From positions 677,271-741,270 of the forward strand of contig CAJINV010000012.1 in the NCBI GenBank assembly GCA_905178155.1: 64,000 nt of DNA. Direction: 5' to 3'. This document shows, one piece after another, positions 207 through 58,800 of the stretch. Source of the stretch: Amoebophrya sp. A120. Its lineage: Eukaryota > Protista > Dinoflagellata. Within the stretch, counting starts at the first letter, position 1. Each line of letters opens with the position of its first letter. The notes beneath the pieces were generated by a model. That model saw nothing but the letters and a program-made list of their open reading frames with translations, was not told the origin of the DNA and searched no databases. Position numbers and translations under genes: made by a program.

Positions 207-3039
207 TTAGCAAGATCTTGGTACTACGTACAAGCATGTATCGCTTCTCTTCCCATACAGCTGCGCTACCGCCCCGCCAGCAATGTACTCTTGTTGCTGT
301 TGATTCACGGTTGCACCACCCGCTAATTTGCTTTTCTCTTCGAGCGATGAAATGTACTCTTCGGCCCCGTCTTTCCCAACCTTCGAACTGCTCGTGGTTA
401 TCACCATACGGAGCAGGCAAACCGTATGCATTGCAAAAGTAAATCGTACTCGTGTAAATGCATTACAAATTTCCTCAGCGTAAAATTTGTAATGCGGATT
501 TACCTTAAGAGCAAGGTTTGTAATGTATGTTTGCGATTACTACGAGTACGATACTTTTGCACAGGATAAACGGCATTCACGGTCGACACGAGGACGAGAA
601 CCACGGTCGAAAAGTCGGATCAAATGCAAATGTGTATGGGTCTGGAAACTTGTGATGCTAGTTCGTGAATGGTAGGCAACCTCCGTTAAGGGGCCACGCA
701 TGACAAGTTTCTGTGCAGCTACTTCTTGCATAACCTGCATGAGAAGCTGCGTTTTTGCATGACACAAAAGAGATGTTGGTATAGCACATCACGCATCACA
801 GCTTTTGCTCTCCTGTGTGCCAAGCATGACAAATCTCGCAATCGCAATCTTCCAGACCCAGACATATTTGCATTTGATAAGTCGAAAAGTAAGTCCAATT
901 TGTCGAGTCTGGGCTGGTGTTGAACAAAACTTCCGCTATTCTGCTGCTGATGCTGATGTCCTCTGTTCCTGTTCCCCCCACCGCCACCGATCCGGTCGTG
1001 CGTCGCGCTCTGCCAGTTGATCCGACCACCGTTATTTTGATGATTTCCACCGCCTGGCGTCGGAGCCGGGTGTTGATGATTTGCGCTGCGCAGCCCCATG
1101 AACACCCGGAGGGACTCGCCGTTGTGGTGAAACACCGCGTTCAAAGCCGTGAAGAAAACGAAAAAGGTTTGGAAGAAAAGGAAAAAAACCGTCACCCAGA
1201 GGCCGACCTGGTTCAGGGTGCGAGAAGTGTAGACCAGCGGGGAGGGGTCGATCACGGTCTTTAGATCTGATGTGTGTTTTTTTTTTTTACGTGAGTAACT
1301 GAACTGTTCTTACACGGACGAAGATGTTGTGCCGCAGCATCCGATGATCTTTGAAGGAGGAGGATATCATGCTCATCAACATCATTTTCATCGTACATAA
1401 AAATATACTACCTGAAACTGACTGCAACACTGGGCCCTTGATATTCTGTCCGCCACCGCCCCCCTTCAAATTTGCGGCACGGCTCGTCATCTCGGTTCCA
1501 TTTCCGTTGGCCACCAAGCCGCCCAGCTGCTCCGCGAGCGTCTTCCCAAAATTCGGCATGGCGACCCGCAAGATACAGGTAAAAACACACCAGAGGAGGA
1601 GCAAGACACACCCGACGACGAGAAAAACCGTCGTGAGAGTTTCCCGTGCAGAGTGGGCGTCCAACACGCCGGATACAGCGCTGTTGTTCATCCCATGTTG
1701 ATGACTTCCGCTTGAAGGTGTTCCCCCTCCATAATTTACCGGCCAATTCTTGCTCACATACAAAACCGCCACGTTTCCGATCAGCAAACCCAGACAGACT
1801 ATCAAAGCGTAATTCAAGTGGTGCGCGCTATGGATGTGTCAGGTTTGAAATCGACAAAGTTGAAATAATTTGTCATGCATAAAATGGATACCAGTTGGGA
1901 GACCAATTTCCAAGCGGCGCATGACAAATTTTCCGAGCACCGAAGTCCAATTTGTCATGCTGTTTGGGCACAGAAGACTGCTTTTGTCATGCTCCTTTAG
2001 CAGCTCTATCCCAAACCCTAAATAGGCGCACAATCTGCCTCACTTGCCAGCCCGGCAAGACAGGCTCTTTATGCCTTGCATTTTATGCATGGCAAATCAT
2101 TTCAACTTTGACGATTTCGATCCTGACAGATCCATACGCACGGGTGGAAAATTCGTCGTGGCGGCGAAACAGATATCCTGTGCAAAAGTATCGCATTCGT
2201 ATAAATGCAAGTCTTCGTTCGTTCGTTGTGGATCGGCTCTGCCGACCGGGTAACCCAACGCCTTGCATACAAGTGACCGACTTAGGCGAACCCCGTTGCG
2301 GGACATACAAATTGGCCGTACGGAAGGGCCCTAAGCGCTACATACATAGTTCACCCTAAGCGCCTACCACTTCGGTCTGGGACCTCGTCTACCTGATCCT
2401 GGGGGTCCACAGCGCACTAGCCCTCTGCTAGCATGAACAGACTGGGTTCTACAAACTGATCTAACTCCCTCTCTTCAACAGTAAGGCCATCATAAATGTG
2501 CGCTAAAACGGGTTCGGGGCGCTCCGTACGGAAGGGAGCCTTTCGACGCGGCGTACACTCTCCTGTAGAGATTTACGCATTACAAATTTTTTTCTTAAAG
2601 TAAATCAGCATGACAAATTTTATTTCTCATGCTGAAAAAAATTTGTAATGCATTTATACGAGTACGATACTTTTGCAGCTCATAACAGAGCGTCGACTTT
2701 TCGCAGCTGCTGCTGCTCGTGCAGTTGGGAGATGGTAGGAGGAACTCCTCCTGGTGAATTATTGTTGCCGTTGTTTTTATTCGTCCCGTTCTGTTGGTTC
2801 AGAAGTTGCTGGGGACCTTGCAGCTGTTGCGGCAGCACCTCTGGATTGTAAGCGGGAATGATGTAGGGCTGTGCGTTGTAAAAAGACTGGGAATTGTAGG
2901 AGGAATATGGGTAGTTGCTGTACGCGTTCTGCTGGTAGTTGTTACCCATGGTACAACCCCCACCAGCCAAGGGCTGGGCCTGTTGTTGAACTGTTGAGGA
3001 AAAGGGGGCGGCCATCGTGGCTGGGGATTGATAATCCAC
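207..3039 (-). CDS. Multi-exon hypothetical multi-pass membrane protein (Q/N-rich N-terminus)
   Basis: ORFs 2680-3039, 1287-1817, 719-1255 and 207-431 belong together. Removing introners plus one TSD joins the 5' exons in frame (...KVDALFRRHDEFSTRAHHLNYALIVCLG...). Several hydrophobic segments. A short canonical intron near 1267-1315 is inferred. Confidence 0.6.
425..568. mobile_element. Introner family A
   Basis: TIR TAT-N7-AAAAGTATCGTACTCGTA type; flanks aaccg/aacgg. Confidence 0.85.
618..879. mobile_element. Introner family B
   Basis: TIR (T/G)ATCAAATGCAAA..GGGTCTGGAA; TSD agtcg. Confidence 0.9.
1829..2136. mobile_element. Introner family C
   Basis: TIR TATGG..TGTCAGG..GAAATCGACAAAGTTGAAAT; flanks cgcgc/cgcac. 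Confidence 0.9.
2174..2684. mobile_element. Introner family A carrying a ~360-bp internal insertion
   Basis: Both family A TIRs present; TSD acaga; 511 bp versus ~150 bp for other copies. Confidence 0.85.
2216..2576 (-). mobile_element. Unclassified insertion, possibly a SINE/LINE 3' fragment
   Basis: Interrupts the family A consensus between gcaagtctt and gcattacaaat; (CGTT)3 at one end; internal repeats ccgtacggaaggg x2 and ccctaagcgc x2. Confidence 0.5.
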
Positions 3040-3995: not shown

Positions 3996-6900
3996 CTACT
4001 CTCGCCACCGTTTCAGCGCGATGAATTTATGAACGTCCTTGAGTATGACCTGCAAAAGTATCGCACTCGTAGTTGTAATTGCAGTCATGCATTGCAAATC
4101 TTTTGCTCAAGGTAAATCCGCATTACAAATTGCATTTCTCATGCTAAGGAAATTTGTAATGCATTAATACGAGTACGATACTTTTGCAATGCATATTGAG
4201 CGCCACGTGTTTGAACCCGTACTGCTTAAACAGCACCGACAAAGCGCTCTGGTCCGCCATGTGTTTTTGGAAACCGGCGTAGTTTTTTACGGACTTGTCT
4301 ATCGACTCGACCTTCACAATCACCGGATCGATCATTTTTGATAGCCAGTGTCTCGCAAAGCGCAACGCCAGCGGGGTTTTCCTGAAAGCGAGGAAGTAGG
4401 CGCCCATCTGCGGTCGCTCCGAAATAGCATGGTGGTCGCCATTCAGGGCCTGGGTGATATTAGTTCGAATATTTCAAAAAAGCCACTTTCTGTATATTGT
4501 CGCTGCCTGCGGCGGATGACAATCAAAGTGCAATATCGAAGCGATTAAGATTATCATGTTTTGGCATCACACACGTCCTCCGTAATGATCAATGAAATAC
4601 CATCAAGGTTTCCCGCTTGCTCCAATCCGCTTCGAAGCAGCACTTCAGCTGCAGTACCGCCACATCGGTTTCTTTCAGTGCGTTATGCAGTGCAAAAGTA
4701 TCGTACACGTTGTAATTGCATTTCTGCATTTCAGCATTACAGTACAAATTCAATTTGTAATGCTGGGGGAATTTGTAATGCAATTTCTGCTAGTGCAATG
4801 TTTTTGCATTCCATATGCGTTTAGCACGAACAATCTTGGGTCGTTTGTGAAATGATTCCCGGCGTCGAGATACACCACGACGCTGTTCTATCCTATGTAA
4901 AAACACCCCCACCCCATGGCTGTCATGCAAAGCTGCATGCTCAAAACGTTTGTGATGCAGAGCCCCATGAGAAGCGTTTTCTAGTCGCCTGTTGGGATTT
5001 GTCATGCTCCAATAAGCACAACGCGCTAGCTCTGTGATGCTGCTGAACGAGCTCCACAGGAATGCACTACAATCAAGGCCAAAACTGTCACGCGCAACAG
5101 CCAAAGCTGGCAGATTTGTCTAGCAGATTCCCCATCTTGACTCTGGGGTGGGGATGTTTTTACTCAAGATATGTCCCACGGCACATTCTCGTCTTCTAGC
5201 GTCTTCAGCATCACATATGGTTTCCAAATCCACAATCCGCCCCCGGTTTTCACCGACAAGATGTCATTGTGCTGCTCTTTCCAAACCGGGTCGAAAGCAG
5301 TTGAGTCGTAAGCCCTCTGGTCCTGAAAGTAACCTTTTCCAGTTTCTAGATTTTTCTTTATCGCTTTCTGACAGCACCCGTCCGCGTAGGAGATGTGGAC
5401 CCAGTTGGTGGCTTGGATTTCGTGTTGTTGACTGCTTATCGTGTTCGTGGTGCTCCGGTAGAAGTGCTCTTTGGCGAGCAGTTTCGGGACGTTGATAGTA
5501 GTTTCTTGGGAAACTACCTCTGAAAGGTCAGAAGTAGATGCAGATACATTTGCGTTCTTTCTCCGCCTTCTTCTCTTCTTCCTCATGGCCGCACTACGAT
5601 CCTCGCCTTCAAGGAGTACATCGGCCCCACTACCTATCGAAACCTTGCTTTTTTCGATTTCCTGCTGAAGCAGATGGTCAACATCGGTACTGTCGTCATC
5701 TTCATCGCTGGAGGCAGAAGTGCCGACATCTCTACTTGTACTTCCATCCGCGGATGAAGCAGCCTCTCGTCCTTCGCCACTGCTTCTACGTGCTGCCCCG
5801 AGAATGATATCCTCCTCCACTTTCTCCAGAAACTCGTAGTTCTGAATTACATCGTTCTTCCTGATCGCTGCATCCAGAACGACTACACCATTCGCAACGG
5901 CGAGCTGGTTATCAAATGCAAATATGTGGTCTGGGTCTGGAAAGTCAAAGTTGTGATGCAGGTCACTGAATAATAAGCACACAGTCATGCGCCGCCAAGC
6001 ATGACCACAGGTTTTTTCATGGTTCTGTGTTGCGTATTCCGCATGAGAAACTGTGTGTTTGCATGACAGTCAAGAGGAGCTCTTGGCTGCCACGCAATAC
6101 TACAGAGCCCAGACTCATGCCAGACTAGCATGACAAGTCTAGCAATCTCCCACACCCAGACATATTTGCAACCCATACTGGTCAAATTTTCGGTACTTGG
6201 CGTACTTTTTCAGAATCGATTCGCCTGCGGTTGACAAAACTTTAACTTTTTCCTGGACTTCTGCGCCCTTGGTATTGATCATTTCACCATCGTCATCGTG
6301 ATAGAACCGCTGAAACAGTTCATCGGCGGATTCCGTGGCGGCGTGAAAGTGAAACCCAACCATTTCTCTCGGCGGGAAGGGATAAATCTCCTTCAACTGC
6401 TCCTCGGAAAGTTGTAGAAAATCTTTCCGATGCTGCATCTTTGCGCGTCGGATAGAAGCTGTCGTGGAGCCGCTTGATGTGGTCGCTGGTGGGTCGACGT
6501 CGTTTATTTTCACGACCCTTGCTTCTGCGTAGTCTTTGACATCTTGGATCCATTGTTCGTGTATGTTTTCCGCCCCTTCTTCCTTTTCCAACTCCTTCGT
6601 CAATCGCGGCGGCGCGTTCCAGGGTAGCAATGGCGTGACGTTGGACCTAGAACTCGCACCGGAGTCGGAGGTGGAGGAAAACGAAGAACACGAGCCTCCG
6701 CTTTGCCCCCCGCATTCCATGCTGAATCCGTCTCCGGAGGCGAGCACACAGGACTCCAACACTTTGTACCGCACTCCCCGGACCGGCAACGCGATCCGCG
6801 TTTCGTCCCAGTAGCTGATCGTTCGGTTGTCCGGGTTGGCCTGGTGGCTCCGGCCCTGGTAGTCCCACCCGCCAACGTCGTCGGCGCCCTGGCGGCCGAG

Positions 6901-9900
6901 GATCAGATCCCACATCTGCAGGTCAAACCCGAAGGGGTTGAGGAGGAGTGTGTGGCGGATCTGGTACAAAATGTCCAAAACGAGATTGGTTTTCGGGGTG
7001 CTGGGGCTCGACTGCGAATTTTGAATTTTGGATTTAGCAGCATGATGGCCGGTGATCAGAGAATCCGATACGACCAGCCCATCGGAGTCTACGGAGGCGG
7101 TATCCTGTGCAAAAGTATCGCACTCGTAGTAATTGCAAACACGCATTACAAATCTTGTTCTCAAGCTAAATCCGCATTACAAATTTTATTTCTCATGCTG
7201 AGGAAATTTGTAATGCAATTATACGAATACGATACTTTTGCAATGCATAAGCGGTAGAGGAAGCTGATGCTTTCATGTTTGTTGTTTCCGCCTCGTCGTG
7301 GTCCGCGTCGTCTTGTCCTGATCCACCAACTGCAGCTTGTCGTGGTGCTGGGACTACAGCGGTAAACGCATCCTCGCTTAATATCCCGGCTGCAGGACCA
7401 TGTGGTCCGACCTGTGGAAAAAATCCAGCTTTTGTGGGGGTAGTTTTCGCGCTGCCTTTGGTTGTTGATGACGTCTTTATTCTACTAGTACTAGTTCCTG
7501 GTCCACCGCCGATCGGCACACAGAGGACGGCGGGACTGACCCCGATGCCGTATTGATCCTTACTCGCCAGGACAAAATCGAACTTCTCGTCGAAAAGGTT
7601 TGCCGGCGACTGGAGCCAGGCGATGTCCAGGTCGACCCAACAGGCGCCGGTGGGAGGAGGAGGAGGTGATAATGTTCTACTTGCACCCGAACTAGAACTC
7701 CTACTCGCGCTGGTGGCACTAGGTTGGGAGACGAGCTCCTGCGCGTTCGTCGTTGTTACCAGATGAATCAAAGCATCGTATTTCGCAATCAAGGACGGAA
7801 ACGTGGGTAAGCACCAGGTCTCGAGTTCTTCTTTTGTGCACTGAGGTTCAGGTTCACTTTCATCGTGGTCGGCAGAAGTTCCTACTTGTTCTGAATCTGC
7901 AGGTGAGGAAGCTGAAGCTGCCGGTGTCCTTGTTGTGTCCATCAGGACAATCAAATTTAGGCCAAATTTTTCTCTAAATCTTCTCACCACTTTCCGTACG
8001 TGCGTCGCCATCCACCCGTAAGCTTGGGTAAAAAAGACGACGCTGTTCTTGTGCTTACTTTTTGAAGGTGTCGTTTTTCTACTTCCCGATGCAGTAGCTG
8101 TGGAAGTAGAAGCATCTTCTACTTTCTCCTGTACCGTGTCTATCATTCTGTTTTTGACAAGCCGCAAAAGGTGCCTCCTATCCACCAGACTGGGCTCATT
8201 GCGGGTTCGGGTGCGGAAACTCGTCGTGATGAATTCGGGGCTTACAATTCCGGTAGATTGATCATGTCTCTGATTCTCTGCTTCTTCAGGATCATTTCCT
8301 GGCACTATGACAGTGTCACCTGCTTCTCTGGCGGTTGCTTCTGCAGCTTCTGGAGCTGCCGGACCCCTCTCGCTAGATGTTCTTGAAACTCGTTCCTCAG
8401 TGTAGTCGTATGGATTGCAAATGTGTCTGGGTCTGGAAGAGTGCAAGATTTGTCTTCATGCATATTTATTCTCATGCTGGCCCGTAATGCCTGTAATGCA
8501 TGACCTAGCATCAGAGACTTTTAGAGGGCTTCGTGATGCACCACCTTCCGCATGAGAAATGCCCTGTCTGCGTAGCACAAACTGGACACCCCTTGCTAGT
8601 CATGCAATACAAATATTTTTCGAATCCAAAAACAGCATGACAACTTCCAGACCCAGACATTTTTGCATTTGATAAGTCGATCCTCGCCACCAAACTCCCG
8701 TCCCCGCGACTGGGGAAATCTAGCCGCTCCCGCCGCATTCTGTACAGCATGTCCCACAAACTATACACGGGCCAGTTGTCCGCCTTGATTGCGTCCGCGA
8801 TAGGTGCGTGGACCGCATGAACCGACGTTACCGCCGTCAGAAACCTCTGGAACCACGCTTGCCGGTCCGACCGGGCGTACCAGAACGCGTGCAACTATGC
8901 TGTGCAAAACTATCGTACTCGTATGAGTGCAATCATGCATGACAAATTGCATATCTTAGGCATATCAGCATTACAAACTGCCGTTTTCTCTTTGAAAAAA
9001 TTTGTAATGCAATTTATACTAAGTACGATGCTTTTTCAATTCATAGCAACACGTAGGCCGCAATCACCGCCAAGTGACACCCAGCTTTGTATTGGTCGGT
9101 GCGCCAGGATTGGAAAATCATGTCGGCGGAGTCCGCAACGTATCCACTGCAAAAGTATCGTACTCGTAGTAATTGCATTTATGCATTACAAATTTCTTTC
9201 TCAATGCAAATCAGCATTACAGATTTAATTTGTAATGCTGGGCGAATTTGTAATGCAATTTATACTAGTACGATGCTTTTGCAGTTCATACAACGGACAT
9301 CATTTTTTCCAGGTGGTACAGATCCTCCCACTTTTTGTAGTTCGCCGCAGTGTATCAAATGTAAAAATGTCTGGATCTGGAAGAATGCAACTTGTCATGC
9401 TAGATCTGAAAACATGCAAAAATCTGTATTGCATGATTACCAAAAGTCGTCCGGTTTGGACCAAGTCGGGAGGGAGTTTCTCATGCAGGATAGGCATGAT
9501 AGAGATCGCACAGAATCTGTCATGCTAGGTCCTGCATTCCAGACCTCATGGGTCATGGAAAAGCTGCATGACAAATCGCGCATTCTTCCAGACCCAGACA
9601 CTTTTACATTTGATACAGTGACCGTGATTTTCTGGTAGGTAGCGTCACCGTTACTCGGAATTTGGACGATAGTGTTTGCTTGCAAATTTCGTTGTGAGTC
9701 GTGCGCCGCGGTGGAAATTTGTTTCGTTTTCTTCCGCTTTGTTCCTGATTCTGTTTGTTCCACCCGCCCAGAAGCAGCGCTACCAGAACTTGACGCGTCC
9801 GTGGCGTTTACGAGTTGTTTGTAAAACAAATCCCAATCTACTCGTTTGTGCATGGGGATGGACTCGTCGTGGTGCTGCTTGCAGTGCCCCATCCGGGTAG

Positions 9901-11093
9901 ACCCCGTTTCCGGGTAAAGTAACATCAACATGTGCAACAGCCGAAACACCGGAAACGACGACCCAAGCAGCAAATGCGACGTGCCCTCAGTATCCTGTGC
10001 AAAAGTATCGTACTAGTATAAATGCATGACAAATTCCCTCAGCATGAGACATAAAATTTGTAATGCGGATTTACCTTGAGAAAAAAACTTGTAATGCATG
10101 ACTGCAATCGCTACGAGTACGATACTTTTGCACAGGATACTCAGGAACCCTCGCTAACTTCTTCCCGTCGGACGGACCCTGCACCGAGTTCGGCACCCAC
10201 TGGATCAATTCGTTGGAGAGCATCGCGTCCAAAACCAGTATGGCCGTTTCATCCTGCGGAAGCTTTCCCTGCAGCAATCCGGACTGCAGCAGCTCTAGCA
10301 AGGCCTTCATGACCAACGCAGTGATGCCCGCCGCTTTGCACTGGTGGTTGTTCTCCAAGACCGTTTCCACGTCGGCGGCCACGAAGGATATCGTTTCGAA
10401 GAGCCATTTGGAGGGCTTATGGTTGTGTCAGGATTGAAATCGACAAAGTTGAAATAATCTGTGATGCATAAAATGCAAGACACGAAGTGACTGTCTTGCA
10501 GAGATTGCAAGTGAGGCCGATTGTGAGCCTGTTTCGGGTTTGGGATATTAGAGCTGCTAAAGTAGCATGACAAAGGATACCATCTTTCGCTAAACAGCAT
10601 GACAAACTGGATTTCGATGACGTCGAAATTTGTCATGCGCCGCTTAGAAATTGGGCTTCCAACTGGTATCGGTTTTATGCATCGCAAATTTTTCAACTTT
10701 GTCGATTTCGATCCTGACACTTCCATACGGTTTTTTCGTGTTGTAAAGTTTCTCCACTTCGTCCGCGAATTTGAAAGACAAATGCGCAAACCCCTGCTCC
10801 CGCCTCGTCGGCATTTCCGGAGAAACGATTGGGTCGCAATCGAATTTCGTGTCGAAGATCGGTTGGATGATGTGAGGATCTGCTGCAGTTGTGCTCGACG
10901 TGACAGGCGCGCTAAAGATGAAGTAGAGAAGATGTGCGAGGAAGAGGATCTGCGTTGCGGCACAGGCATTTGCAAGTGGCTTCCGTCGTCCTCGACTCGG
11001 CATCAACATGTTATGGCCCGGGGGGCGGCCGAAGAACGACGAGAGGGAACCTATTTTTCGTCGCATTTTTTCCAGCACAAAGATCCTGCTCAA
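3996..11093 (-). CDS. Large multi-exon protein with two glycosyltransferase-like domains
   Basis: Spliced translation shows WVDLDIAW (DxD, nucleotide-diphospho-sugar transferase-like), then GGGLWIWKPYV..VYLDAG..DQSALSVL; hydrophobic segment near the N-terminus; 11 introners; ends ...FIALKRWRE*. Confidence 0.65.
4044..4195. mobile_element. Introner family A
   Basis: TIRs; TSD ttgag. Confidence 0.9.
4684..4815. mobile_element. Introner family A
   Basis: TIRs; TSD tgcgt. Confidence 0.85.
4889..5171. mobile_element. Introner family D
   Basis: TIR TATCCT..GTAAAAAC..CCCCACCCCA; flanks tgttc/tgtcc; similar to 25190-25469. Confidence 0.85.
5910..6177. mobile_element. Introner family B
   Basis: TIRs; TSD ctggt. 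Confidence 0.9.
7101..7249. mobile_element. Introner family A
   Basis: TIRs; flanks ggcgg/agcgg. Confidence 0.9.
8409..8674. mobile_element. Introner family B
   Basis: TIRs; TSD agtcg. Confidence 0.9.
8896..9045. mobile_element. Introner family A
   Basis: Degenerate TIRs; TSD gcaac. Confidence 0.85.
9141..9290. mobile_element. Introner family A
   Basis: TIRs; TSD caacg. Confidence 0.9.
9353..9615. mobile_element. Introner family B
   Basis: TIRs; TSD cagtg. Confidence 0.9.
9991..10139. mobile_element. Introner family A
   Basis: Near-perfect TIR TATCCTGTGCAAAAGTATCGTACT; TSD ctcag. Confidence 0.95.
10418..10727. mobile_element. Introner family C (opposite orientation to 1829-2136)
   Basis: TIRs; flanks gggct/cggtt; removing element plus 5 nt gives in-frame NTKKPSKWLFE. 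Confidence 0.85.
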
Positions 11094-12781: not shown

Positions 12782-12837
12782 GTGTTACAAGTCAGCGTCG
12801 GTCCTCTGAGAAGTGTAGCGCTCTTCGGTTCGGTCAT

Positions 12838-13530
12838 CTAAAACTCTGCCCTCATCCCGTTTTTCTTCATCCAGGGCGCAAACACTTTCATCGCCTCTAC
12901 CATCTTGTCTGACCTGTGCGGATGGAATTTTGCTCGGTTAAACATGGTCAAGACAATTTGCTTCTGGTGCGTTAAATCGCGACACTGTTTCGAAATAATC
13001 TTCAACGTGTCCCGCGCTTTTTCCGCAGATCCGAAGCCGGTTCCCTGCACGGACTGTTTTGGGTTCCTGTTCCCCGCGTGGAGGGATATGTTCACGCCGT
13101 TTTGGACTTTTCGTGCGAGGCTTTGCTCCTCCTTTTTCGATTTCGGTATCCTACAGAAAAATTACTACGCCAACAGATACTTCTACCAGAAAAGAAGTAA
13201 ATTTCTGTTGCAGTGTTTGATGACACAATCAAGGTTTTTTTCCGGGTGGTTCGACATGCCAAACTTTTTCGATTGCACCTCTCTGACAGCACCCGAATCG
13301 CATTACAAACTGAACTCTACATGGCAGAAGATTGCATCTCTTTTGACTTTGCGTTCCAGCACAATTTTTAGTGACAGAAATCGACCAGCTGCAGCACAAA
13401 TTCACTATTTTTCTCGTAGCTCTGACTCTGCGGGTGTGTTTTTCTTTTTCTGTGGGATATTCGGCAGCGTTATCTTGCGAACTTTCTCGATGGCGGATCT
13501 GGCCACAGCCTTTGTTGCGGTTTTAGACAT
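12838..13530 (-). CDS. Small basic protein of unknown function, one introner
   Basis: ATG at 13530. MSKTATKAVARSAIEKVRKITLP joins KSKKEEQ..NPKQSVQGTGFGSAEKARDTL..TMFNRAKFHP in frame after removing 13147-13459 plus one TSD. Confidence 0.75.
13147..13459. mobile_element. Introner family K
   Basis: TATCCTACAGAAAAA...TTTTTCTGTGGGATA; TSD ttcgg. Confidence 0.85.
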
Positions 13531-19361: not shown

Positions 19362-19669
19362 TATGGGAGCGTCAGGTTTGAAATCAACAAAGTTGAAATG
19401 ATTTGTCATGCATAAAATGCAAGGCATGAAGTGCCTGTCTTGCCGGGATGGCAAGTGAGGCCGACTGTCAGCCTGTTTAGGGTTTGAAATAGAGCTGCTA
19501 AAGTAGCACGACAAAAGCAGTCGTCTGTGCCCAAACTGCATGACAAATTGGATTCCGTTACTCGGAAAATTTGTCATGCGCCGCTTGGAAATTGGGCTTC
19601 CGGCTGGTATCGACTTTATGCATTACAAGTTATTTCAACTTTGACGATTTCAATTCTGACACTCCCATA
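19362..19669. mobile_element. Introner family C outside any evident long CDS
   Basis: TIRs; TSD ctgcg. Confidence 0.9.
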
Positions 19670-44001: not shown

Positions 44002-46214
44002 TCAATCCGCCTCTACCGTGGTGGGCTCGAGCGTGATTCTCTCCCGCAGAAAGTAGTCCAGGTAAATATAACCATCTCAGGTGTTACAATCTCAAACGTT
44101 ACAATAGAGTCTGGGATTCGTCTGGCATCATGAGCATTACAGACTCGTAGACCGTTACACTTTCTGCAATACAAATTTCGCCAGTTTGTAGTGTGGTTTG
44201 GGACTCCGGAACTTGTCATGCGCAGTCCTATGAGAGTTGGCTAGATCATGATCATGCATTTCTTGCATCACATATTTCCAGACTCTATTGTAACGTTCGA
44301 GATTGTAACGCTTGAGCAGGTCATAGTAAAGGCACACGGCGCGAAACTCCCGCGGCGCCCAGAAGTGCGTACCGTTCGGCACCAGAACCGCGACGGCGTG
44401 TTGCCCTTCGGCCCGCGTGCAACGGTTCTCCTCTGCTGAGGGGCTCTCCAGCGCGGCGACGGGGTCACCGCCGGGGAACAATTGCTGCAATTGCTGCTTG
44501 AAGGCCGACACAGAACAGTAGCCGTCGTATGAACTGCAAAAGTATCGTACTCGTATAAATGCATGACAAATTTTCTCAGCACGAGAAATAAAATTTGTCA
44601 TGCTGATTTACCTTACGAAAAATATTTGTGATGCAAGACCTGCATTTATACGAGTACGATACTTTTGCACAGGATACGTCGTTCGTCCCGTTGATGTACA
44701 GCTGGGGTCGCTTATTGGGCGACGGCGACTGATATCAAGAGCACAAGTGTCTGGGTCTGGAAGAGTGCCAGGTTTGTCATGCATATTTTGCATAACCCAT
44801 GACGCCTGTGATGCATGACCTAGCATCTTCAGAGATTTCTAAAGGGCCTTCTGATGCGTATTCCGCATGAGAAACGCCCACTCCGCGCAGCACAAACTGA
44901 ACTCCTCTTGCTGGTCATGCAATACAGATTTTTTATTTTGCCTTCCAAAGACAGCATCACAAGTTGCAACCTTCCAGACCCAGACATTTTTGCATTTGAT
45001 AACTGAATCAGGCCGCCGAGAAACAGGTTCCCCAAAAAGCCAAAGGGTGGAGATAACGCGACAATGCTATCAAAAGGAAAAATCCCCCCTCCCCATATCA
45101 AAACGGAAATCTGTGATGCAGATTTGTTGTCACAAATCAGCTTTGTCATGCTACACGGGACAAGATGCGCACTGTAGTACTGGGTGGCGTGGGGAAGCCT
45201 TGCATCTTCAGCATGATAGGAGGCAGCTAAGAGTGGAAAACAGCATGACAAATTGCCTGCAAACGAGGCCACGACTGCGGCTCTTGGCCTTCTAGCATGA
45301 CAAGTCGATTTGTGACCTCAAATACAGCATCACAAATTTCGTTTTCGATATGGGGAGGGGGGATTTTTCCTTTTGATAAATGCCCGCGACGCGCTCGTCC
45401 GTCGCAAACCGGTTCCCAACCGCAATGGCCGCGTTGGCACCGGCGGAGTACCCCACCACGAGGACCCGACGGCACTTCGGCAGGTGTTTCGCACAGTCGC
45501 CCCGGGTGAGCGCCTCCACAGCTTTACAGGCGTCCTCGGTTTCGCCGTACCCCCGAAGGCTGGGGTGCGCCGTGTCGTACCGCACGGCCGGAAGTCGGTG
45601 CTGCGACGCCAGATAGTGCTGCAACCAGGTCACCACGTAGTTATTCTTGTCTCCGCCCAGGTAGTACATCGGGAGCTATGCATTGCAAAAGTATTATAAT
45701 CGCGGCCATCGTAGCAATTGCAAATATGCATTACAAGTCTCCTTCTCAAGGCGAACCGGCATTAGAAATTCCATTTCTCATGCTGGGAATCAAATTTGGC
45801 ATGCATTTTCCATAATACGTTGTTGTACTTTTGTATTGCATAGGTGCAGTACCAGTGCAACCAGCGTGCCCTCTCCGGTTTCCCCATGCTCGTCCGCAGG
45901 CCGAAGTAAGTCGCATTGCATATCCTGTGCAAAAGTATCGCACTCGTACCAATTGCAGCCATGCGTTACAACTCTCCTTTTTATTTAGGCAAATCCGCAT
46001 TACAAATTCCATTTCTAATGCTCAGAAAATCTGTAATGCGATTTCTACTAGTACGATGCTTTTGCATTTCATAGTGCAGCAGGTCCGCCAAAACAAACTG
46101 AGAACTTTGGGTCTTCTGTGCGGGTCCCAGCGCGCCGGTGCTCGTCTCGGATCCCGCTCGAGTCTGACGGCTACCGGAAGCCGCTGCTGTGGTCGCGCGC
46201 GACGGCGATGACAT
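44002..46214 (-). CDS. Alpha/beta-fold hydrolase, six introners
   Basis: Spliced motifs H-x-P..LGGDKNNYVV, VVGYSAG (GxSxG), IVALSPP, LYINGTND (Asp), NGTHFW (His); ends ...EPTTVEAD*. Confidence 0.85.
44067..44325. mobile_element. Introner family E
   Basis: TIRs; TSD gtaaa. Confidence 0.9.
44528..44676. mobile_element. Introner family A
   Basis: TIRs; TSD cgtcg; close to 52292-52440 in sequence. Confidence 0.95.
44733..45001. mobile_element. Introner family B
   Basis: TIRs; TSD actga. Confidence 0.9.
45068..45378. mobile_element. Introner family F
   Basis: ~30-bp TIR TATCAAAAGGAAAAATCCCCCCTCCCCATATC; TSD aatgc. Confidence 0.95.
45677..45842. mobile_element. Degenerate introner family A
   Basis: TIR remnants; flanks ggagc/ggtgc. 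Confidence 0.8.
45921..46073. mobile_element. Introner family A (empty site present at 48933-48937)
   Basis: TIRs; flanks ttgca/gtgca. Confidence 0.95.
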
Positions 46215-46473: not shown

Positions 46474-46519
46474 GACGTTGCGAACCACAAAAATCGGACG
46501 TTGCGAACCACAAAAATCG
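46474..46519. repeat. 23-bp tandem duplication
   Basis: gacgttgcgaaccacaaaaatcg x2. Confidence 0.9.
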
Positions 46520-49829: not shown

Positions 49830-52800
49830 TCAACTCACCACCGGCATCGCGTAGTTGCAGGTCGTTTCTGCAACTGCTCTCGGTAAAACAATCGCTTTTT
49901 CGTGGCAAAGCGGAATCAGAGCGCTTTCCTTCACCATTTCCGTCGGCGACCCGAGAGTGGCGCTGCTGGAGTTGTTCGGCACGACCGGTCGCTGCGTTTC
50001 CACCATGAGCCACTCGACGCGGCTAGCTACTTGCTCCTCGCCCTTCATATCACCCAGGTCGCCGTCAAAACTGTCTTTCCTTTCGCCTCCGGCGGCGGTA
50101 AACGAGGCAGAGGAGCTACTCCCAGAGGAAGAGACCATCCCGATGGATTGCTTACTCGCACTGCGGCTCCGGCTTGTGTAGTTATTCATCGCTGCACCAG
50201 TAGTACTCGCGTCTAGGCTCTCGGAACTGGAATTGGCACCGCTGCTGTTATTCCCCTTCTCTGCAACAGGCTGGGGAAAGTAGGACAGCAAAGTGTGTTC
50301 CGACCGGAGCAGGCGCGGTTTTGAGGTCGCGGTGAAAGCGATAGAAGAACTACTCTTCTGTTTCTCAACTGCCGTCTTCTTCGCCATACTGGTCGTTACT
50401 GTTGCGACTTGCCACTTCGAAAACGCTTTGAAAGCGTGTGCTTGGTCGTCTTGGGCGGTTCCGGTTGAGGCGTTAAAAATGTTGCTGTTACTATTTGACG
50501 TAGTCCTTTCAACATCATCCGCAAGGGCGTAAACTACCTCAGTGTTCTTCTCAAAGTACCTCCTTATCCTCGTTGCGTCCACCCGGAAGGGTTTCGGCTG
50601 CATCTTCTTCGGTGGTAACTTCACGATGTACCCCCGGAATCCCGGCAGCGCTTTCTCCACAACGCAGGGTCCGATCCAGGAGAGGGATTTGTTGCTAGAC
50701 AAAGTTGTATCGGAAGATGCTGAAAATTGCGTCGGAGCAGGTTGTTCTTTGGAAGAAGGTACTATCTCTGTCGTGCTTTCCTCCAGCGTTTTGTTGTGGT
50801 CCTGGACGTTTTTACCACTTTCCTCCATTTCCACGCAAACTATGAAAGCCTCAGGTTGGAAATCCTCAAAGTGAAAATAATTTGTAATGCAAAAAAACGA
50901 CTCCAGTTGAAGCACCATTTCTAGTCGGCGCATGACAAATTTCCCGGGCACTCAAAGCGTGTTTGTCATGCTAGTTAGGCAAAGCGGTGCCCCACCCTCG
51001 TGCTAATCAGCAGCCCAATTCTGAACCTGTAGAAGCACAATAGTCGGCCTCCATTGCGTTCTCTCCAATACAGTCTTTTTGGTGTCGCATTTCATGCATC
51101 ACAAATTATTTTTACTTTGAGCATTTCCATTCTGAGGGTGTCATACAAACTTGACACAGCTCCCCGACCCGCAATGGGATCCGCAGTTTTGTTATCGGGC
51201 AGGACCTCTTGACCTGCTTCCCCTGAATCAAAACATCGACAACGCCCGCAGTTTGGATGCTTTGGGAAACAGTTGTTGCAGTTGTACTGGTTGCAGCACT
51301 ACTACTCGTTGTTGCCAAAATGGACGCGGGGACGTATGTGCCGAACCTCTGCGACCAATACTCGACCTTCTCGCCCGCGGAATAGCACGCCGGTGGGCGG
51401 TTCGTCGGATTCTGTTCAGAGGAAACGGCTGTGGAAATCTCGCTAGTCTTGTCGATTGGCTTAGAAGTGCTGGTTACGCTTTTCCTTTCTGCAAGATCTA
51501 CGGCTTTGACCGGCGAAGTAGTTGTGTCGTCCACCTTCACTTCAAACGTCGCTGCTTTTACCACCTCCTGCTGATCGTAATCCCAGATAATTTTCCGTTT
51601 CCCGGTTTTCTCGTCCATCATGATTTTCCAATGCGTGTTTAACTTCGTGTGTTTTTCCAGTTCCAGAGTCAAATTCTGCTTCCCCTTCTTCGGCTTCTTA
51701 CACCCGTAGTAGCAGTACACACTGGCGCAGAGCCAGAAGAGGGCGATAACCGCGAAAATAGAGGACTTCAAGATCATCGCTTGGTCAGCGCAGGAAAAGG
51801 AATCCTCGGAATGCAACGGGCAGTCGAGGAAGCTGCAATTATTGTAGTTTTTACAATTCTGCTCAATTTCCGGTTTTGTTGTTTGATCGCATTCATCCCC
51901 ATCGTTCGCATTGCCGCAGACAAGCAATCCAATTCGGGCCTGGATCCCCTTTCCGCACAGGTTGGAGCACGTGTCCCAGGCGCCAGGCTGGAGATCATGT
52001 TCTTGAGTGCTTTGTGATGCAGTAGTTCTTGCGCCGTCAGTAGTTGTAGATGAATCATCAACCACGAATCCCCATTCATTTTTCGTCACAATCGCGTTTG
52101 CAGTGAAGCGGATAGTTTCTGTGTTCAGGGAGAAACTCTGTAGGAAGTCGGCTTGTTGTGCTGATGTTGTGACAGTGGCAAGTTCCCGTCTGACCGACGC
52201 AGGAACAACTACTTGCGACGAGGACTCTGCCGGCCCCAGCCCTAACACGTCGGCTCGGTGTCGGTGCAACTCGTTAACAAATGCGGACCGGTATGAACTG
52301 CAAAAGTATCGTACTCGTATAAATGCATGACAAATTCCCTCAGCATGAGAAATCAAATTTGTAATGCGGATTTCCCTAGGGAAAAGAATTTGTAATGCAA
52401 GACTTGCATTTATACGAGTACGATACTTTTGCACAGGATAACCGGACACTCGGTGTTATCTCCGCGGAGGAGGAAAAGCTGGATGCTATTCCCCGAAAAT
52501 TAACCATCCCCATCCACTTTTTGCATGACAGACGCCGAATTTCCTACATGTTTTGCATGACAAATTGGATGGGGATGGGTGATTTTCAGGGAATAGATGC
52601 CATGGAGATCAAGTGATTCCTTACCGTCTGTGCCCGGGTGGATTTCAAATCCCCTCGAGTGCGAACCTCGAAAGAGACTTGGAAGGTCTTGGTTGATATG
52701 GATTGCAAAAGTGTCTGGGTCTGGAAGAGTGGAACTTGTAATGCTGTCTGCAGATTCTAGAAATGTCTGTGTTGCATGAGCAGCAAGAGGAGTCAGCTCT

Positions 52801-55800
52801 TGGACGCAGATAGGGCTTTTCTCATGCGTAATTAGCATCAAGAAGCTGTCGAAAAATCTGCGATGCTAGCACCAGCATCACAGACCTCACGGGTCATGCA
52901 AAATGTGCATGAAAAAACCCAACTCCTCCAGACCCAGACACTTTTGCATTTGATAGTTGAGGATGCTGTTGAGCTAGTGCTGTGTTGGTTTGGCACAATT
53001 TCCACCGGGGCCCGAACCGCAATTGTGTCGTAGGTAGGTGATTGTGCGGAAGATGATGATGATGATGTTCTTATTGACAACTCCGACGTCAGCGACCGAG
53101 CCTCCCCTTGTCCTGCTTGTTGCTGCATCCGGAGCATTCCATTCGGTAACAAAGCTAGAAACGCCTTGCGGTAGGCGGATCTCATGATCGGGTCTCGAGT
53201 TAGCAGGTTCGTGTCGAGGGCTGGTGAAGCAGGTTCTTGCTGCGATGGTGCCGAAGATGCCGGCGAGGTGCTGTCGACGCTGGTTGTAATAGAAGATTCG
53301 TACCCTTCTATTGTTCCAGAAGTTGGCGATGAGGTAGAAACTTCCGGCGCCAACATAGCAGCAGCTCCAACAGGGCCGATCTGCAAGAACTCTTTCACCA
53401 ACGTCTCCGTTTGTTGCAGTTCGAAATTAATCGTCACCGATGTGGAGCTAATCACCTCCCCCACGGCCCCTTCTTTGATGCAGCCGGCGTTGTTAGTACT
53501 GGGAGTTTCAGACGACGGAGAAGTAGCACTACCCTCTCCTGCAGACGTCGTGGTAGAGGACACCGCTGCGGCAGACCCCGCCGCTGTGAAAACTCCGTCT
53601 ACGCAAGTGACCGGGAAACTCACGCTTGAAACTTTCCCCGCGTCCCCGTTCCAAATATCGTATCCAGTGGGGCAGGTTGCTGCGCACTGCATGCCGGTGG
53701 GGTAGGTGTTTGCTTGCTCGGTAGAAGTGCTCGCTCCTTCTTCCTTACCAGAGGAGGGGGATGAACTTGATGAACCGCTGCAGTCGATGGTAGTGGATGT
53801 CTGAAACACGGAAGACGCTGCTGTAGTACTGCCTACCCCTGGTGCGCCGCCGGTCGGACTGCTGTTAGATGTTCCTGCAGCATTCGTCAACCCACAACTC
53901 GCCGCTCGGCGACACAAATTTTCCAACTGTGGTGAAGATGACGATCCTCCTGCAGCTGTCCCTCGCAACATCCATTCCCGCCCTTCCTGGTCACAAACCA
54001 ACTTCGCGACAGCGTTATTTTGGCCCGAAATCACTACAGTTTGCTGCGGCACGAACTCCGGCCCCTTGCAGGAAATCTCCACTTGATTCGGGTCAGTGGG
54101 CTTGTCATGCATAACCAGCATGGAAGCTGCACTTGAATCAATGAAGTGACTGATCGTAGGCGCCGGCCCGCAATACGCCGGGGGTAGAGTCGTAGAGGAA
54201 GAGCTGCTTGAAGCTGCAATAACGGGTGGAGGAGTCGTTGTGGTCGTAATCCTCAGTGGTACCAATCTCGTCGTGATTATCTCCACACTTGCATCGCTCA
54301 CCGCAAACACCGGCCCCATAGAGGTGCTGGTGGTGAAGGTTGATGTGGCACCAGATAATTCATCCGCCGGTCGTCCCGGTGGTGGAGAAGACGAGGATTC
54401 TTCAGAGGACTCAGGGAGTTCTCTCCGTTTGTTCGGGTCTTGCGAAGCAGCCGCTCCTGCATTCACACTCGCCAAGCTTGTCCCCGAAACCACGTCGCTC
54501 AAAAACCCAAATTGCCCATTGGTGTGCTTAGTCAAGAACAAATTGCTTCGGATGATTCCCTCCTCTGTCGGCGTAAATTTGTTTTCATCTGCTTGTCCTG
54601 ATTCTGATCCAGATCCACCACCACCATCGCTTCCACCTGGCAATACAACCGCCCCCGAGATCCCTTTCGTTTCAAAATCCCTCACTTTCGCATTCCACGT
54701 ATTTTCCAAAAAGCTCCCCGCGTGTTCTCTTGTCTTGAATTCACCAAAAGCAAACTCCACTGTGATGTTGACGTTGAGAGATGGAGCGACGGGGCCGTTT
54801 GAACCGCTGCTCTGACCGGCACTCGAAGAACCCGTCGTGCTACTAAACACCTCCACCGGTTGGTCGCTCAGGTCTAGATGGAGAAGAGCCAGACTCGTGT
54901 TGAAATGGATTTTCATTTCCCTTGCGGAAAAATCACCGTTGAAAATTTCTTTGTCCAGTTTCAATTTCAAATACTGGTAGAAGTTGTTCGCAATCAATTT
55001 TTTTCGGTTTTTCAAATTCTCCGCATCTTGTCCGATTTGATCATGTCCGTTTGCATTCCCCGTTGGATTCGCCACCGACTCCCACCAAGCCCTCGGCTTG
55101 TTATGCAGTGCAAAAGCATCGTACTCGTAGTAATCGCAGTAATGCATTACAAATCTCCTTCTTAACCTAAATCCGAACTACAAATTTCATTTTTCATGCT
55201 GAGGGAATTTGTCATGCGATTTCTACCAGTACGATGCTTTTGCATTTCATACTTGTCCGGGCTGTGCAACTGGTAGGTCAAAGAGAACTTCAACTGGTAA
55301 ACCACCTCCGGGTCCCGCAAATAGTCCTTCTTCGCGAAATTCATATCCAGGCCGCATTTCTCTGTTGCGTACCCGTCTTCGAAGATCTGTTTGTACATGG
55401 GATCAGGATTGTTCCCGCTGTGGTCCCTACCCGCGCAGTTCTGCGCCGAGCAAACTCCTAACCTGCGCCACGTTGCGCAACACACGTCCGCGGTGAACCT
55501 TTCCGGGCTGGTGCAGGACAAAAGGTCGAAATTAGGGGGGGCAGAGAACTCTCGGTAAGCTAAGGTTCCGGTCTTATCGCAGATTTTGTCGAAGCAAGTG
55601 GTGAACTGTCGGTTGGTGGATAAAGACGGATTTCCGTTCATCCTCGGTTCGTAGCGGAACCGGAGAAAGAAATCCTCCGGATCGGAGGCCGGGAGAATGT
55701 AGTAGTTGTAGGAAGGTGGAGCAGGACTAGTTGGCGACGTCGCGTCTTGCTGTGCATCTCCTACACTGTTTGTTGTACTTTGCAGCCCGCTATTCCGAAT

Positions 55801-58800
55801 CGCTTGCTCTAGTTTCTGCTCAAACATTATCCACAGAAAAACACCCATCCCGGCCATCCATTTTTTGCATAACAAATAGTGGAATTTATGCACATTCTGC
55901 ATGACAAATTGGATGGGGATGGTTGTTTTTTCCTGAATAAACTTCTCCTCAATTTTCCACTCCTCGGTTCCGAAAAAGTAGTCCGAAGCCGCCGGCGGCC
56001 AAAAATTCTTCAAGTGGATTGTCACGACAAACGACCGCTTGTAATCATTACTACTTGGTGAAGGAGATGATGCGGAGCCGGAATCACCACTATTACTCGG
56101 AACTAGAATCACCCGAACGGTGAAGAGTCTATTCATCGCTGTTTCGTCGAAGTTGTTGCTGTTGGAAAAGCTCTGCGGGAAAAACTCCCGCATGGTGTTC
56201 ACGAAGGATTCTCTTACAAGCTTTTCCGCTTCGCCGGTCTTCGGTTGGAGAAATTTTTGGAGGAAAATAGGGGTGAAACCTCCGGTGGAAGAAGAGGATA
56301 AAGCCCTTATTTCGCTTGTTTGTTCTGTCATCTTTCGTCGTTTCTCCTCTTGCGGAGGGGCTTTTCCACTTGGCGGAGGAGACGACTCACTATCCCCTAT
56401 ACTTGCCGGACCCATCACCGACACAAGCTGAAAAGTCGCTTCTAGGTGTAGATCCAACCCCGTTTCGATCTCCTTGAACGGGTTCGCAATCGCACTGCAG
56501 GACTGCTCTATCGCGGTTTGCTCTGCGGTAAAGGTGTGTTGATTCGTGCCTCCAGTACTACACTGCCTCGCCGCACAATAGCCAATTTTCGCGACGGGGA
56601 GCTGTTGACAGCACTCGTTTTTGAAAGACAGTAGAGCGGAAGAAGTTGTAGTCGAACTGTCACCGTTGCTCCCGACGATCGAGTTCACAGTTGTAGTTCC
56701 AGCAGCAGAATTCGCAGATGAAGAAGTACTAAAGCACTGCCTGTATTCCCCCAACCGCGTGTGTGCAAACACGTTCCGCGCCGGAATATCTTCGTTCTGC
56801 TCGTAGACACAGTTTTCCGCCATGCAGTTCAAATGTTCTGGGAATTGATTCGAAACCTTCTCAATCCGCAACTCATTGTTCCTCAGCAACTCCGCGTGTC
56901 GGTAGTCCAAATGCCAATAGTTATCCGCGATGCCGTACACCACTCTTCCCGGCGTGTCCTGGCTTCGCACTGAGGTCATGTAAAACGCCGCTTGGCCCGC
57001 ATTTGCGCTATTACCCTTCGCGTTCTGGAACAACCCACCGCTATTCCCGTAGTCAAGTTGTGTATTTCCGAGGAAGAGTTTCTGCTTCAGAAAGTTCTCC
57101 CGGAAGGACATTGCATGTTCTTCCGTTCTGAAAGGGCCGAGTCTGAAGGTAAAGGTGAGGTTGAACACGTGCTCCTTGTCGAACTGGTTTTCCCACCAGG
57201 TAGTTTGTTGTTCTTGATTCTTATCGTCCTGCTGTTGTTCCTGAAAGGACTCCACTTGCATCCGGATCCAGTTATCCTCCAACGTAGTTATGTTCCGCAA
57301 ATCCGTGATTTGCAATTCGATTGGGAAGAAGTCGCTATTTCCCGTTGTCTATCCTGTGCAAATGTATCGCACTCGTACTGATTGCAAATATGCATGACAA
57401 ATCTCCTTCCTAAGGTAAAACAGCATTACAAATTCCACATTTCTTCTTGCCCATTTTGTGACGCAATCTATACTAGTACGAGGATACTTTTGCAATGCAT
57501 ATTGTCCGATCCTCCGTGTAGTTCCAGAGCCGCAAAACGGTGTTCGCGATGTACTTTTTCAGGTAAAACTCGTAGAAAAATTTGCTGTCGCTGACTTTCA
57601 GATTTCGTGTTGGAGTTGTACCTGTTGTACCTGCCGCAGCGTCACCTGTGGATGCTGAAATTGTGTAAAATGCACCCGACCCCGTACTGCTCGCCGCACC
57701 ACTGGAAGATGAGCTGTTTCCCATTCCTGGAGTTGTAGTGCCGGAAGTAGATCCGAGCCAGCCGGAAATTCCGCGAGATCGATTGGAAAAACCGATCCCC
57801 ATCGGGAAACTGTTTGTTCCATTCACGTTTTCCGCGATAAACCGTGCCCGTTTTTCCCCCGGTGGCCCGTTCGTCGACCCAAAAGCGCCGACCATCCAGG
57901 CGCGCTGCGACAGGTAGAGCAGTTGCGACCCGGTGACGAAGAACCGGTCAGAGGTTTTTTGGGAGTGGAGGTTCACCCCACAGGACTCTTCGATGTTAGA
58001 TAAATGATGGTTGAGGCTGAAAATTGGGTTCGTTACCGCTCGCTTGGTTGGGGGGGCTGGAGACGAAAAATCTGCATTGGTGCCTTGTAGGGCTCTTGGT
58101 GTTGACGTTCCTTTCTGTAGCTGCTCCCGGTTGATTTTTTCATACGTTGTTGCCAAAGAAGACCAAGAAGACCCTACCAGCCGCCGCGATTCATGAGGCT
58201 GACTGTCGTCATTACTACTCCTTGGCGCCGGAAAATTGATTTCCCGTCGCATTCCGGACGCTTGGAACAATTTGCGGCCGTGTGAACTATCACTATCACT
58301 GAAGTCCGGGCAGTTCCGTTTCAAGCACTGCATGATGGGCGATAGATAGGAACAGCAGGAATTCTCTAGTTGCCGCTTCTCCTGACCCTGATCGGAGGCG
58401 ACAAACTGCACGGCGAAGTCCATCCGATGCGTCCCAACCGGGTCCCGATCGTCCCAACTATCCTGCACTTGCAAGCACTCGTGGTACAGTCGCGCACTGG
58501 GCGAGAAAGATTCGTAGTTGAAGTCAAAATACTGCAAAGGGGCGCTATTCCACTTCGCTTCTTCGAAAATTGTATCGCAGTGTGCGAAGAAGCAGTGCCC
58601 GTGCACTCCGATCTGATTGTCGAGAACCGTGTTACTAATCCTCCAATACTGCCCGCAAACCGACTGCTGCGTTCCCATGTCGTAAGACTCGGTGAGGGAA
58701 AGTTGTTCTACTTCGAAGTCGGAAGGTTGGGTATTGCTACTGCCGTCTTGTCCAGTTGTTCCCTGCTGTTGTACGAGATGCTGATTCACGGTGTACTTGA

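Follow-up and report, generated by a model that had tools for sequence, protein, structure and literature searches.

A same-strand motif pair with three-turn spacing inside introner families of Amoebophrya sp. A120

Introduction

The way in which the introners of the dinoflagellate Amoebophrya sp. A120 move and are spliced is an open question in the available text of Farhat et al. (2021, PMC7789003). A 64,000-nucleotide stretch of this genome (contig CAJINV010000012.1, positions 677,271 to 741,270 of the forward strand; hereafter the window, whose own numbering is used throughout) raises the question of whether introner families with different inverted repeats carry something inside them that one machinery could read. 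A preliminary description of the window, made from its letters only, had noticed the word GCAT(G/T/C)ACAA in families said to have unrelated terminal inverted repeats (TIRs), and had proposed that one protein, acting on DNA or RNA, recognises them all. Here the word is found to be organised as a same-strand pair with a fixed spacing of 31–32 bp, which is read, as the likelier of several explanations, as a binding site on double-stranded DNA for a mobilising protein common to the families.

Identity of the elements

Elements were catalogued by TAT...ATA ends, TIRs and a 5-bp target site duplication (TSD), the TAT being demanded by the detector. TIR and TSD alone defined 54 elements (12,480 bp); 14 degenerate elements were added to these motif-blind ones, some of them located beside unassigned motif matches, which makes the addition partly circular. 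The resulting 68 elements occupy 15,385 bp of the window and leave a remainder of 48,615 bp. BLAST clustering of 61 elements gave seven singletons and nine multi-copy families, namely A (21 copies, approximately 150 bp), B (10, 265 bp), C (6, 308 bp), D (4), E (3, 210 bp), F (3, 256 bp), G (3, 320 bp), H (2, 220 bp) and I (2, 109 bp); these letters and the cluster numbers are labels of the present analysis, not the letters A–M of the preliminary description.

To call the TIRs unrelated was an overstatement, since the signature TAT-S-N6-AAAA and the 5-bp TSD are common to families. With families weighted equally, C or G occupies position 4 at a frequency of 0.94 and the A-run at positions 11–15 reaches 0.73–0.89, families C and F being without it. 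Left and right TIRs match poorly at positions 4–7 (0.40–0.63) compared with 0.75–0.96 further in. These variable and often non-complementary positions leave a bubble adjoining the TAT in the end hairpin, which may matter for splicing or for the cut.

Published A120 introners, about 29,850 in 1,954 families and 17% of the assembly, have inverted repeats that begin with TAT, 7 variable nucleotides and at least three A, and direct repeats of 3–5 nt (Farhat et al. 2021, PMC7789003). The window elements are these introners, as host, TAT ends, 5-bp TSD and removal from RNA all indicate: exon 45379–45669 matches, at 100% identity, a protein that its source assigns to Amoebophrya sp. A120, the A-run follows the variable nucleotides, and the 5-bp TSD is perfect in 112 of 139 elements of a second assembly (described below), where the detector accepted at least 4 of 5 matches. 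The family lengths agree with those tabulated for A120 in rows 1–41 of 58 by Gozashti et al. 2025 (106–109, 149, 209, 256–261, 277–279, 305 and 319–322 bp; PMC12130899). The elements also have the properties of miniature inverted-repeat transposable elements, being short, bounded by TIRs, flanked by a TSD of fixed length, devoid of coding capacity and present in multi-copy families. The earlier suggestion of an undescribed system therefore went too far: the elements are published, and the internal motif grammar alone was not found in print.

A motif pair with fixed spacing

GCATBACAA occurs 130 times in the window (70 on the plus and 60 on the minus strand, from position 460 to 62738) against 2.18 expected from dinucleotide shuffles, whose largest count was 6. 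Of these copies, 110 fall in the 54 motif-blind elements; in the full catalogue, 126 copies lie inside the 68 elements (8.2 per kb) and 4 in the other 48,615 bp (0.08 per kb). The recurrence of the word across families, as first described, was borne out. A strict copy is present in 60 of the 68 elements, and each of the nine multi-copy families has the motif. The fifth base is A in just 3 of 133 GCATNACAA matches in the window. A weight matrix built from element interiors has the consensus GCA(T/a)(G/T/C)A(C/g)A(A/G)(A/G)TT, with 272 sites inside elements and 38 outside.

The unit of the motif is a same-strand pair of GCA(T/A)(G/T/C)ACAR, 30–33 bp apart and mostly 31–32 bp, with distance peaks at 31 bp (31 pairs) and 32 bp (30 pairs). 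A distance of 31–32 bp corresponds to three turns of B-DNA. The pair occurs in 49 of the 68 window elements (null 7.9) and in 10 of 18 groups, including all nine multi-copy families (null mean 2.0, maximum 8 in 20,000). Its spacer shows an identity of 0.61 within a site, 0.35 between families and 0.30 after shuffling. The upstream half of the pair is looser than the downstream half. This fixed pairing, missed by the preliminary description, is the strongest evidence of the present analysis. Opposed-pair spacings of 33–34, 47 and 65 bp are each limited to two families, and a second patch, SBACTACA, found in D (5/11), H (6/11) and G (5/8), is not enriched in the window (9 inside elements, 23 outside). 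The core may resemble RBFOX UGCAUG or ApiAP2 TGCATGCA sites, a likeness that fits neither the free fifth base nor the absence of strand bias.

A weak T-(G/C)-(C/G)-A preference lies 10–7 bases ahead of the second half of the pair, one turn upstream, in the window and the metagenome loci, and an apparent period of ~82 bp (79–86) is seen in several families.

A held-out set was obtained by scanning 7 of 64 parts of a metagenome collection with the pair pattern, which stored 125 loci. Element families were held by 48 of them, all from one assembly (JACKZZ01 records), and the other 76, with none, were dropped; the second-assembly set comprises 49 loci (one without a family match) and 139 elements, against a single false call when shuffled sequence was searched. 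After removal of the 43 elements that contained the search pattern, 96 held-out elements remained, among which a site was present in 95 and a pair in 68 (null 14.1, maximum 27). Clusters 11, 12 and 27, which have no window member, showed the pair in 3 of 3 held-out elements tested. No other lineage with the system was seen in the 7 of 64 parts, a weak negative, and viral loci retrieved with the inverted-pair (13) or direct-pair (12) pattern had isolated matches with 2–4 strict copies per locus, which were read as chance.

Conservation and helical phase

Conservation was measured in alignments of eight families (135 sequences), rows selected by the search pattern having been dropped. The six core bases reached 0.941 (234 columns), compared with 0.785 for other interior columns (1,092), 0.881 for TIRs and 0.769 for the embedded fifth base, which is G, C or T, and A in 1%. 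In the window alone the base-matched values were 0.925 for the core and 0.776 for the rest, a difference that holds with CpG columns removed. On trees, the ratio of core to other change rate was 0.19 on internal and 0.50 on terminal branches, TIRs going in the same direction (Fisher p 3e-7, six families), and the fifth base changed like background on the six-family trees; this tree count took the place of a singleton-versus-shared allele count, which is biased by allele saturation. Core changes are rarer on internal than on terminal branches, as in TIRs, a pattern consistent with selection chiefly on those copies that later multiply. Across families, element interiors are for the most part not alignable, and the best local alignment of two family consensuses spans a median of 13% of their length. 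The preliminary description had named lack of enrichment, or interiors aligning end to end with a motif no more conserved than its neighbours, as grounds for abandoning its idea; the opposite was found on each count.

The position of the motif relative to the element end may also be patterned. The first outward-pointing site lies near 36–38, 44–48 or 56–59 bp from the end, and its phase at 10.5 bp gives R 0.86 among 12 multi-copy clusters, compared with R 0.51 (p 0.005) when all 21 clusters are included, in an automatic test whose earlier hand-compiled version gave R 0.83.

A probable mobilising protein in trans

In our view, with somewhat better than even prospects, these results are best explained if a single mobilising protein, provided in trans and common to the families, binds the motif pair as a subterminal site in double-stranded DNA. 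Thus the proposal that a single protein reads all families stands as the best reading for DNA, whereas its RNA-binding version does not, as the motif shows no strand bias and site-less elements are spliced. The shared protein is probably an integrase-like DDE transposase, since the TA ends and the 5-bp TSD point to that group, and here we infer a protein from the geometry of a pair. Two protomers, or a two-domain dimer, would occupy the same face of the helix at a distance of three turns, and an outward-pointing site about 37, 47 or 57 bp from the end would be in phase with the cut. TIR and interior would be free to drift as long as the TAT-S-N6-AAAA end and at least one phased pair persist; copies that retain the pair would be amplified more, and a copy, once inserted, would gradually lose it. 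The symmetric ends (TIR hairpin and TSD), rather than the motif, would serve splicing.

Several observations weigh against this explanation. No transposase or integrase Pfam match was found in 95 open reading frames (ORFs) of at least 200 aa, taken from the window and from 31 of the 49 second-assembly loci, nor was any long TIR element seen apart from one 1.1-kb pairing of C-type ends. In the available text of Farhat et al. (PMC7789003), neither a transposase nor U1 small nuclear RNA was found in A120, and general transposase-mediated mobilisation of introners is excluded. The sites of cluster 8 are unpaired (0 of 3 held-out elements with a pair), the pair is absent from 28 of the 96 held-out elements, and the second assembly may represent the same strain. 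Some families are related: the alignment of F with cluster 8 spans 96% of their length, and in 24 of 78 masked consensus pairs the two members have patches of 9–33 nt in common. The phasing to the end is suggestive, because the test was post hoc and related families are not independent; inward-pointing first sites are unphased (R 0.23, p 0.55), and family A is without an outward site near its ends. As to the trees, any purifying selection shifts changes to the tips, trees from 150–300 bp are noisy, and the core change rate on terminal branches, still half of neutral, leaves room for constraint after insertion. Finally, spacing cannot distinguish a transposase from a host DNA-binding protein.

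The last point leads to an alternative that we consider unlikely but worth keeping in sight, in which a chromatin, architectural or transcription factor of the host binds the pair as DNA. The elements would exploit this protein as a cofactor or licence for transposition, and it might also help to load the splicing machinery during transcription. All of the geometric evidence suits any double-strand binder equally, the residual constraint of 0.50 on terminal branches would be explained, pairs also lie deep inside elements of C, D and G (130–180 bp from an end), and the reported lack of both transposase and U1 in A120 (PMC7789003) agrees with it. However, the motif is nearly absent outside elements, including intergenic stretches and the RNA-verified GT-AG intron, a scarcity that is unlike a general host factor, and two TIR-derived introns without a site are still spliced.

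Splicing is probably indifferent to the motif

The mobilising-protein explanation leaves removal from RNA to the element ends, and RNA contigs bear on this point. They stem from four runs of two samples in one study, their RNA status is guessed, and they report the presence of spliced forms, not efficiency. Within 31400–37400 they skip 15 listed segments, 14 of which correspond to TIR elements (one joint spanning two) and one to a GT-AG intron, so that the elements are removed with non-canonical ends, as introners are. When each element is excised together with a single TSD, minus-strand frames of 4,467, 1,350, 5,142 and 8,721 nt reappear across 10, 11, 7 and 7 elements, respectively, and five excisions reproduce 273 of the 328 residues of public protein P0001. 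The last ~55 residues of that protein run into the family F element 44067–44325, probably a missed intron in the annotation. There is no fixed CDG at element positions 4–6 of the kind that forms the euglenid boundary signature, but the exact cut is hidden within the 5-bp TSD, most RNA joints having 5 ambiguous letters.

That the motif acts in RNA, either as a mark for a single-strand factor in non-canonical splicing or through opposed copies that fold the intron, now appears very improbable. It would suit the non-GT-AG ends of the spliced elements and the strong hairpin of family A RNA, in which one opposed motif pair is base-paired (z −11.7); in family D, whose sites are all on one strand, the RNA ends are closed by the TIR arms. 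However, strict copies are random to the direction of transcription, with 138 sense and 134 opposite in those 135 elements, out of 207, for which the restored frames gave the gene strand; no family is strand-biased, and the one-strand families D and I stand at 4:2 and 1:4. Spliced forms exist both for elements with antisense-only sites (35790–36079, 33760–33918) and for two TIR-derived introns without sites (33518–33699, 36680–37112), so that removal is indifferent to element orientation and the motif has neither the sense bias nor the regular presence in spliced introns that would mark an intronic splicing enhancer. Between opposed copies there is no covariation of the fifth base (mean excess 0.01; p<0.05 in 2 of 38 pairs, versus 3 of 45 same-strand controls), and the conserved relation between copies is direct rather than inverted, which contradicts the suggestion that opposed copies are kept for RNA pairing. 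An RNA function as a requirement for splicing is largely refuted.

The motif is absent from the single RNA-verified GT-AG intron. A probable second GT-AG intron at ~26608–26803, read from the letters and fitting a 245-nt gap in an RNA contig, holds the strict copy at 26770, one of the four outside elements. In addition, RNA runs X9 and X10, which bear the same species label, contain family B and D sequence at 95–99% on 22923–23187 and 25384–25440 with no exon matched. Their source may be transcripts of other loci, or of another strain, in which copies stay unspliced.

The remaining alternative, a neutral relic in which all families descend from one repeat-built ancestor and the word was merely inherited, is hardly credible: it could claim the common end signature and TSD length, the short patches in common, the one distantly related family pair and the slight excess of cross-family spacer identity over shuffle, but strict neutrality is refuted by differential conservation (the core outlasting its neighbours though the fifth base embedded in it drifts), the spacing is retained while the spacer sequence is lost, consensus alignments cover little of the length, and a strong context-dependent mutation bias, which alone might save this view, was not seen in base-matched, CpG-excluded controls. 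Common descent is probably the history of the families, yet it does not explain the selective retention of the motif.

Comparison with known systems

Published families of A120 introners are defined by their inverted repeats, and the internal motif, the 31–32 bp pairing and the end phasing go unmentioned in the available parts of the two papers (PMC7789003, PMC12130899). Motif, pairing and phase were likewise undescribed in the literature searched, including the text of two supplements; relevant material may lie in figures S19–S25 of Farhat et al., two supplement files, Roy et al. 2023 and theses. The available parts of a review (PMC11282704) and of a paper on Euglena (PMC12501133) deal with boundary signals only. 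What emerges is a set of known elements with a known kind of cis-code, whose internal motif grammar was not found in print.

Such a code is exemplified by maize Ac/Ds1 of the hAT superfamily, in which short non-autonomous elements have only the ends and an internal transposase-binding word (AAACGG subterminal repeats) in common with their mobiliser (PMC3260210). hAT elements differ in their 8-bp TSD (PMC3260210) and variable repeat spacing (PMC6188088), compared with the 5-bp TSD, TAT ends, 10-bp word and 31–32 bp period of introners, which by TSD length are not hAT members and may nevertheless work like Ds1. Ac/Ds1 have a mobiliser, whereas introners are without a known autonomous partner. 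Ds1 can reportedly also be spliced as an intron.

The ends of IS607-family elements (IS1535) offer another likeness: transposase binding is nucleated there by short direct repeats in helical phase, which lie as far as 60 bp or more from the end, and the terminal sequences differ (PMC6188088). In contrast, IS607 is a bacterial serine-recombinase system with neither TIRs nor TSD and a period of 10–11 bp, and introners are eukaryotic, with TIRs, a 5-bp TSD and a three-turn period. IS3EU/GingerRoot elements have TA..TA termini like introners, but their TSD is usually 6 bp rather than 5 bp; Ginger2 has a TSD of 4–5 bp (PMC10045372). A120 fam38 (~810 bp) is listed with "5-bp TSD, TA/TA Termini" and integrase-like homology; its ends and TSD are as in introners, and it is reported to be without Ginger homology, termini and TSDs (PMC12130899). 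Euglenid nonconventional introns are TIR/TSD-derived and non-GT-AG with paired ends, as introners are; their splicing code is a CAG/CTG-type boundary signature (N3CDG...CH'GN5-6|R), the introner motif being internal and strand-independent (PMC12501133).

Positions of elements and neighbouring features

Table 1. Introners, related elements and example motif pairs in the window
Feature	Positions	Strand	Remarks
introner A	425..568	.	TIR+TSD
introner B	618..879	.	left end GAT
introner C	1829..2136	.	sites 46-, 95+, 128-, 160-, 231+, 263+
family A element	2174..2684	.	holds ~360-bp unrelated insert (~2211-2570)
introner A	4044..4195	.	
introner A	4684..4815	.	short
introner D	4889..5171	.	sites all one strand; within restored 4,467-nt ORF
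introner B	5910..6177	.	
introner A	7101..7249	.	
example motif pair, family A	7143..7183	+	31-bp period
introner B	8409..8674	.	
introner A	8896..9045	.	
introner A	9141..9290	.	
introner B	9353..9615	.	
introner A	9991..10139	.	24/24 TIR, TSD CTCAG
introner C	10418..10727	.	
example motif pair, family C	10565..10606	+	32-bp period
single-copy TAT..ATA element	13147..13459	.	3 motif sites, no pair
introner E	14794..15006	.	
introner H	15721..15936	.	
introner F	15986..16238	.	
family C element	19362..19669	.	5 motif sites; probably non-coding location (no long minus-strand ORF restored)
introner B	22923..23187	.	sites 46-, 78-, 95+, 134+, 188+, 219+
introner A	23302..23445	.	left end CAT
introner A	23603..23747	.	
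E-like element (cluster 10)	23839..24038	.	no strict motif, 3 degenerate sites
introner A	24078..24229	.	
introner A	24386..24538	.	
introner A	24618..24782	.	
introner G	24828..25145	.	three motif pairs
introner D	25190..25469	.	six same-strand sites = three pairs
introner D	25582..25995	.	~135-bp internal insert; RNA contig piece begins 25996
introner B	26179..26447	.	
introner A	26894..27053	.	degenerate
introner H	27291..27530	.	
introner B	27680..27941	.	
introner C	28002..28308	.	
cluster 8 element (distant relative of F)	31589..31852	-	spliced; coordinates = RNA joint
A-like element	31922..32081	.	degenerate; right end approximate
introner E	32090..32298	.	
introner G	32343..32663	.	spliced
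H element	32722..32904	.	degenerate; spliced
degenerate element	32977..33107	.	left end approximate; RNA exon piece begins 33108
introner, cluster 8	33193..33434	.	spliced
B-like element	33523..33699	.	decayed; no motif site; spliced (RNA joint 33518-33699)
introner s13	33766..33919	.	single pair, antisense strand only; spliced (RNA joint 33760-33918)
introner A	34306..34479	.	spliced
D-like element	34512..34811	.	decayed; one weak site; spliced
divergent element	34852..35055	.	2 sites; spliced
introner F	35402..35660	.	no strict motif, 5 degenerate sites; spliced
introner D	35795..36079	.	4 sites, all antisense to RNA; spliced (RNA joint 35790-36079)
example motif pair, family D	36009..36049	+	31-bp period
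introner E	36169..36380	.	spliced
decayed element	36684..37111	.	no motif site; nested 251-bp palindromic insert; spliced as 36680-37112
introner A	42325..42475	.	
introner C	42554..42865	.	
introner B	42921..43185	.	
introner F	44067..44325	.	
introner A	44528..44676	.	
introner B	44733..45001	.	
introner G	45068..45378	.	24/24 TIR
example motif pair, family G	45295..45336	+	32-bp period
introner A	45677..45842	.	divergent
introner A	45921..46073	.	
introner C	50841..51145	.	
introner A	52292..52440	.	
introner I	52487..52595	.	109 bp: TIRs + single motif pair; smallest family
introner B	52697..52955	.	
introner A	55102..55251	.	
introner I	55828..55939	.	
introner A	57350..57501	.	
A remnant	62668..62810	.	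decayed; one pair; ends approximate; beyond the range of the preliminary description

The 251-bp insert at 36758–37008, nested in a decayed introner, is AT-rich (35% GC) and has a perfect 27-bp inverted repeat beginning TATAAC; with no motif site and no TSD, it is an exception to the common code or another type of element. Nearly all callable genes of the window are on the minus strand. Minus-strand host genes at 22800–27285, 43500–46200, 51115–52455 and 62300–62638 encode, respectively, an ion-transport channel with at least 12 introners, an alpha/beta hydrolase, a thrombospondin-domain protein and a protein with a ubiquitin-like domain. A 300-nt duplication (46075–46374 and 48934–49233, 99%) copies the alpha/beta-hydrolase gene's 5' exon but leaves out the introner next to it, and a repeat spaced ~1 kb apart lies at 48334–48889 and 49324–49900. 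Between the duplicated segments, 46860–48030 holds an array of palindromic units (GAATTTTCACTCGG...CTCGTTCCGGAACGAG...) with a partly 154-bp period and no motif.

Significance

The motif makes the movement and splicing of A120 introners a testable question. That the families have this pair in common suggests a single machine, not a separate one for each of thousands of families, and the pair provides a defined 42-bp bait for pull-down as well as a signature for locating the autonomous element; family I, 109 bp of TIRs and one pair, is the minimal element. Two problems are separated in this way, splicing being pointed to the symmetric ends and mobility to the interior. A bolder and improbable extension would join them again: a single protein, whether a DNA-binding factor of the host or an integrase-like enzyme that has been domesticated, might read the three-turn pair on tens of thousands of elements, mobilise ~2,000 families whatever their TIR, and mark them on the chromosome for U1-independent, orientation-blind excision from nascent RNA. 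If true, the pair would be a DNA-encoded intron address serving both transposition and splicing.

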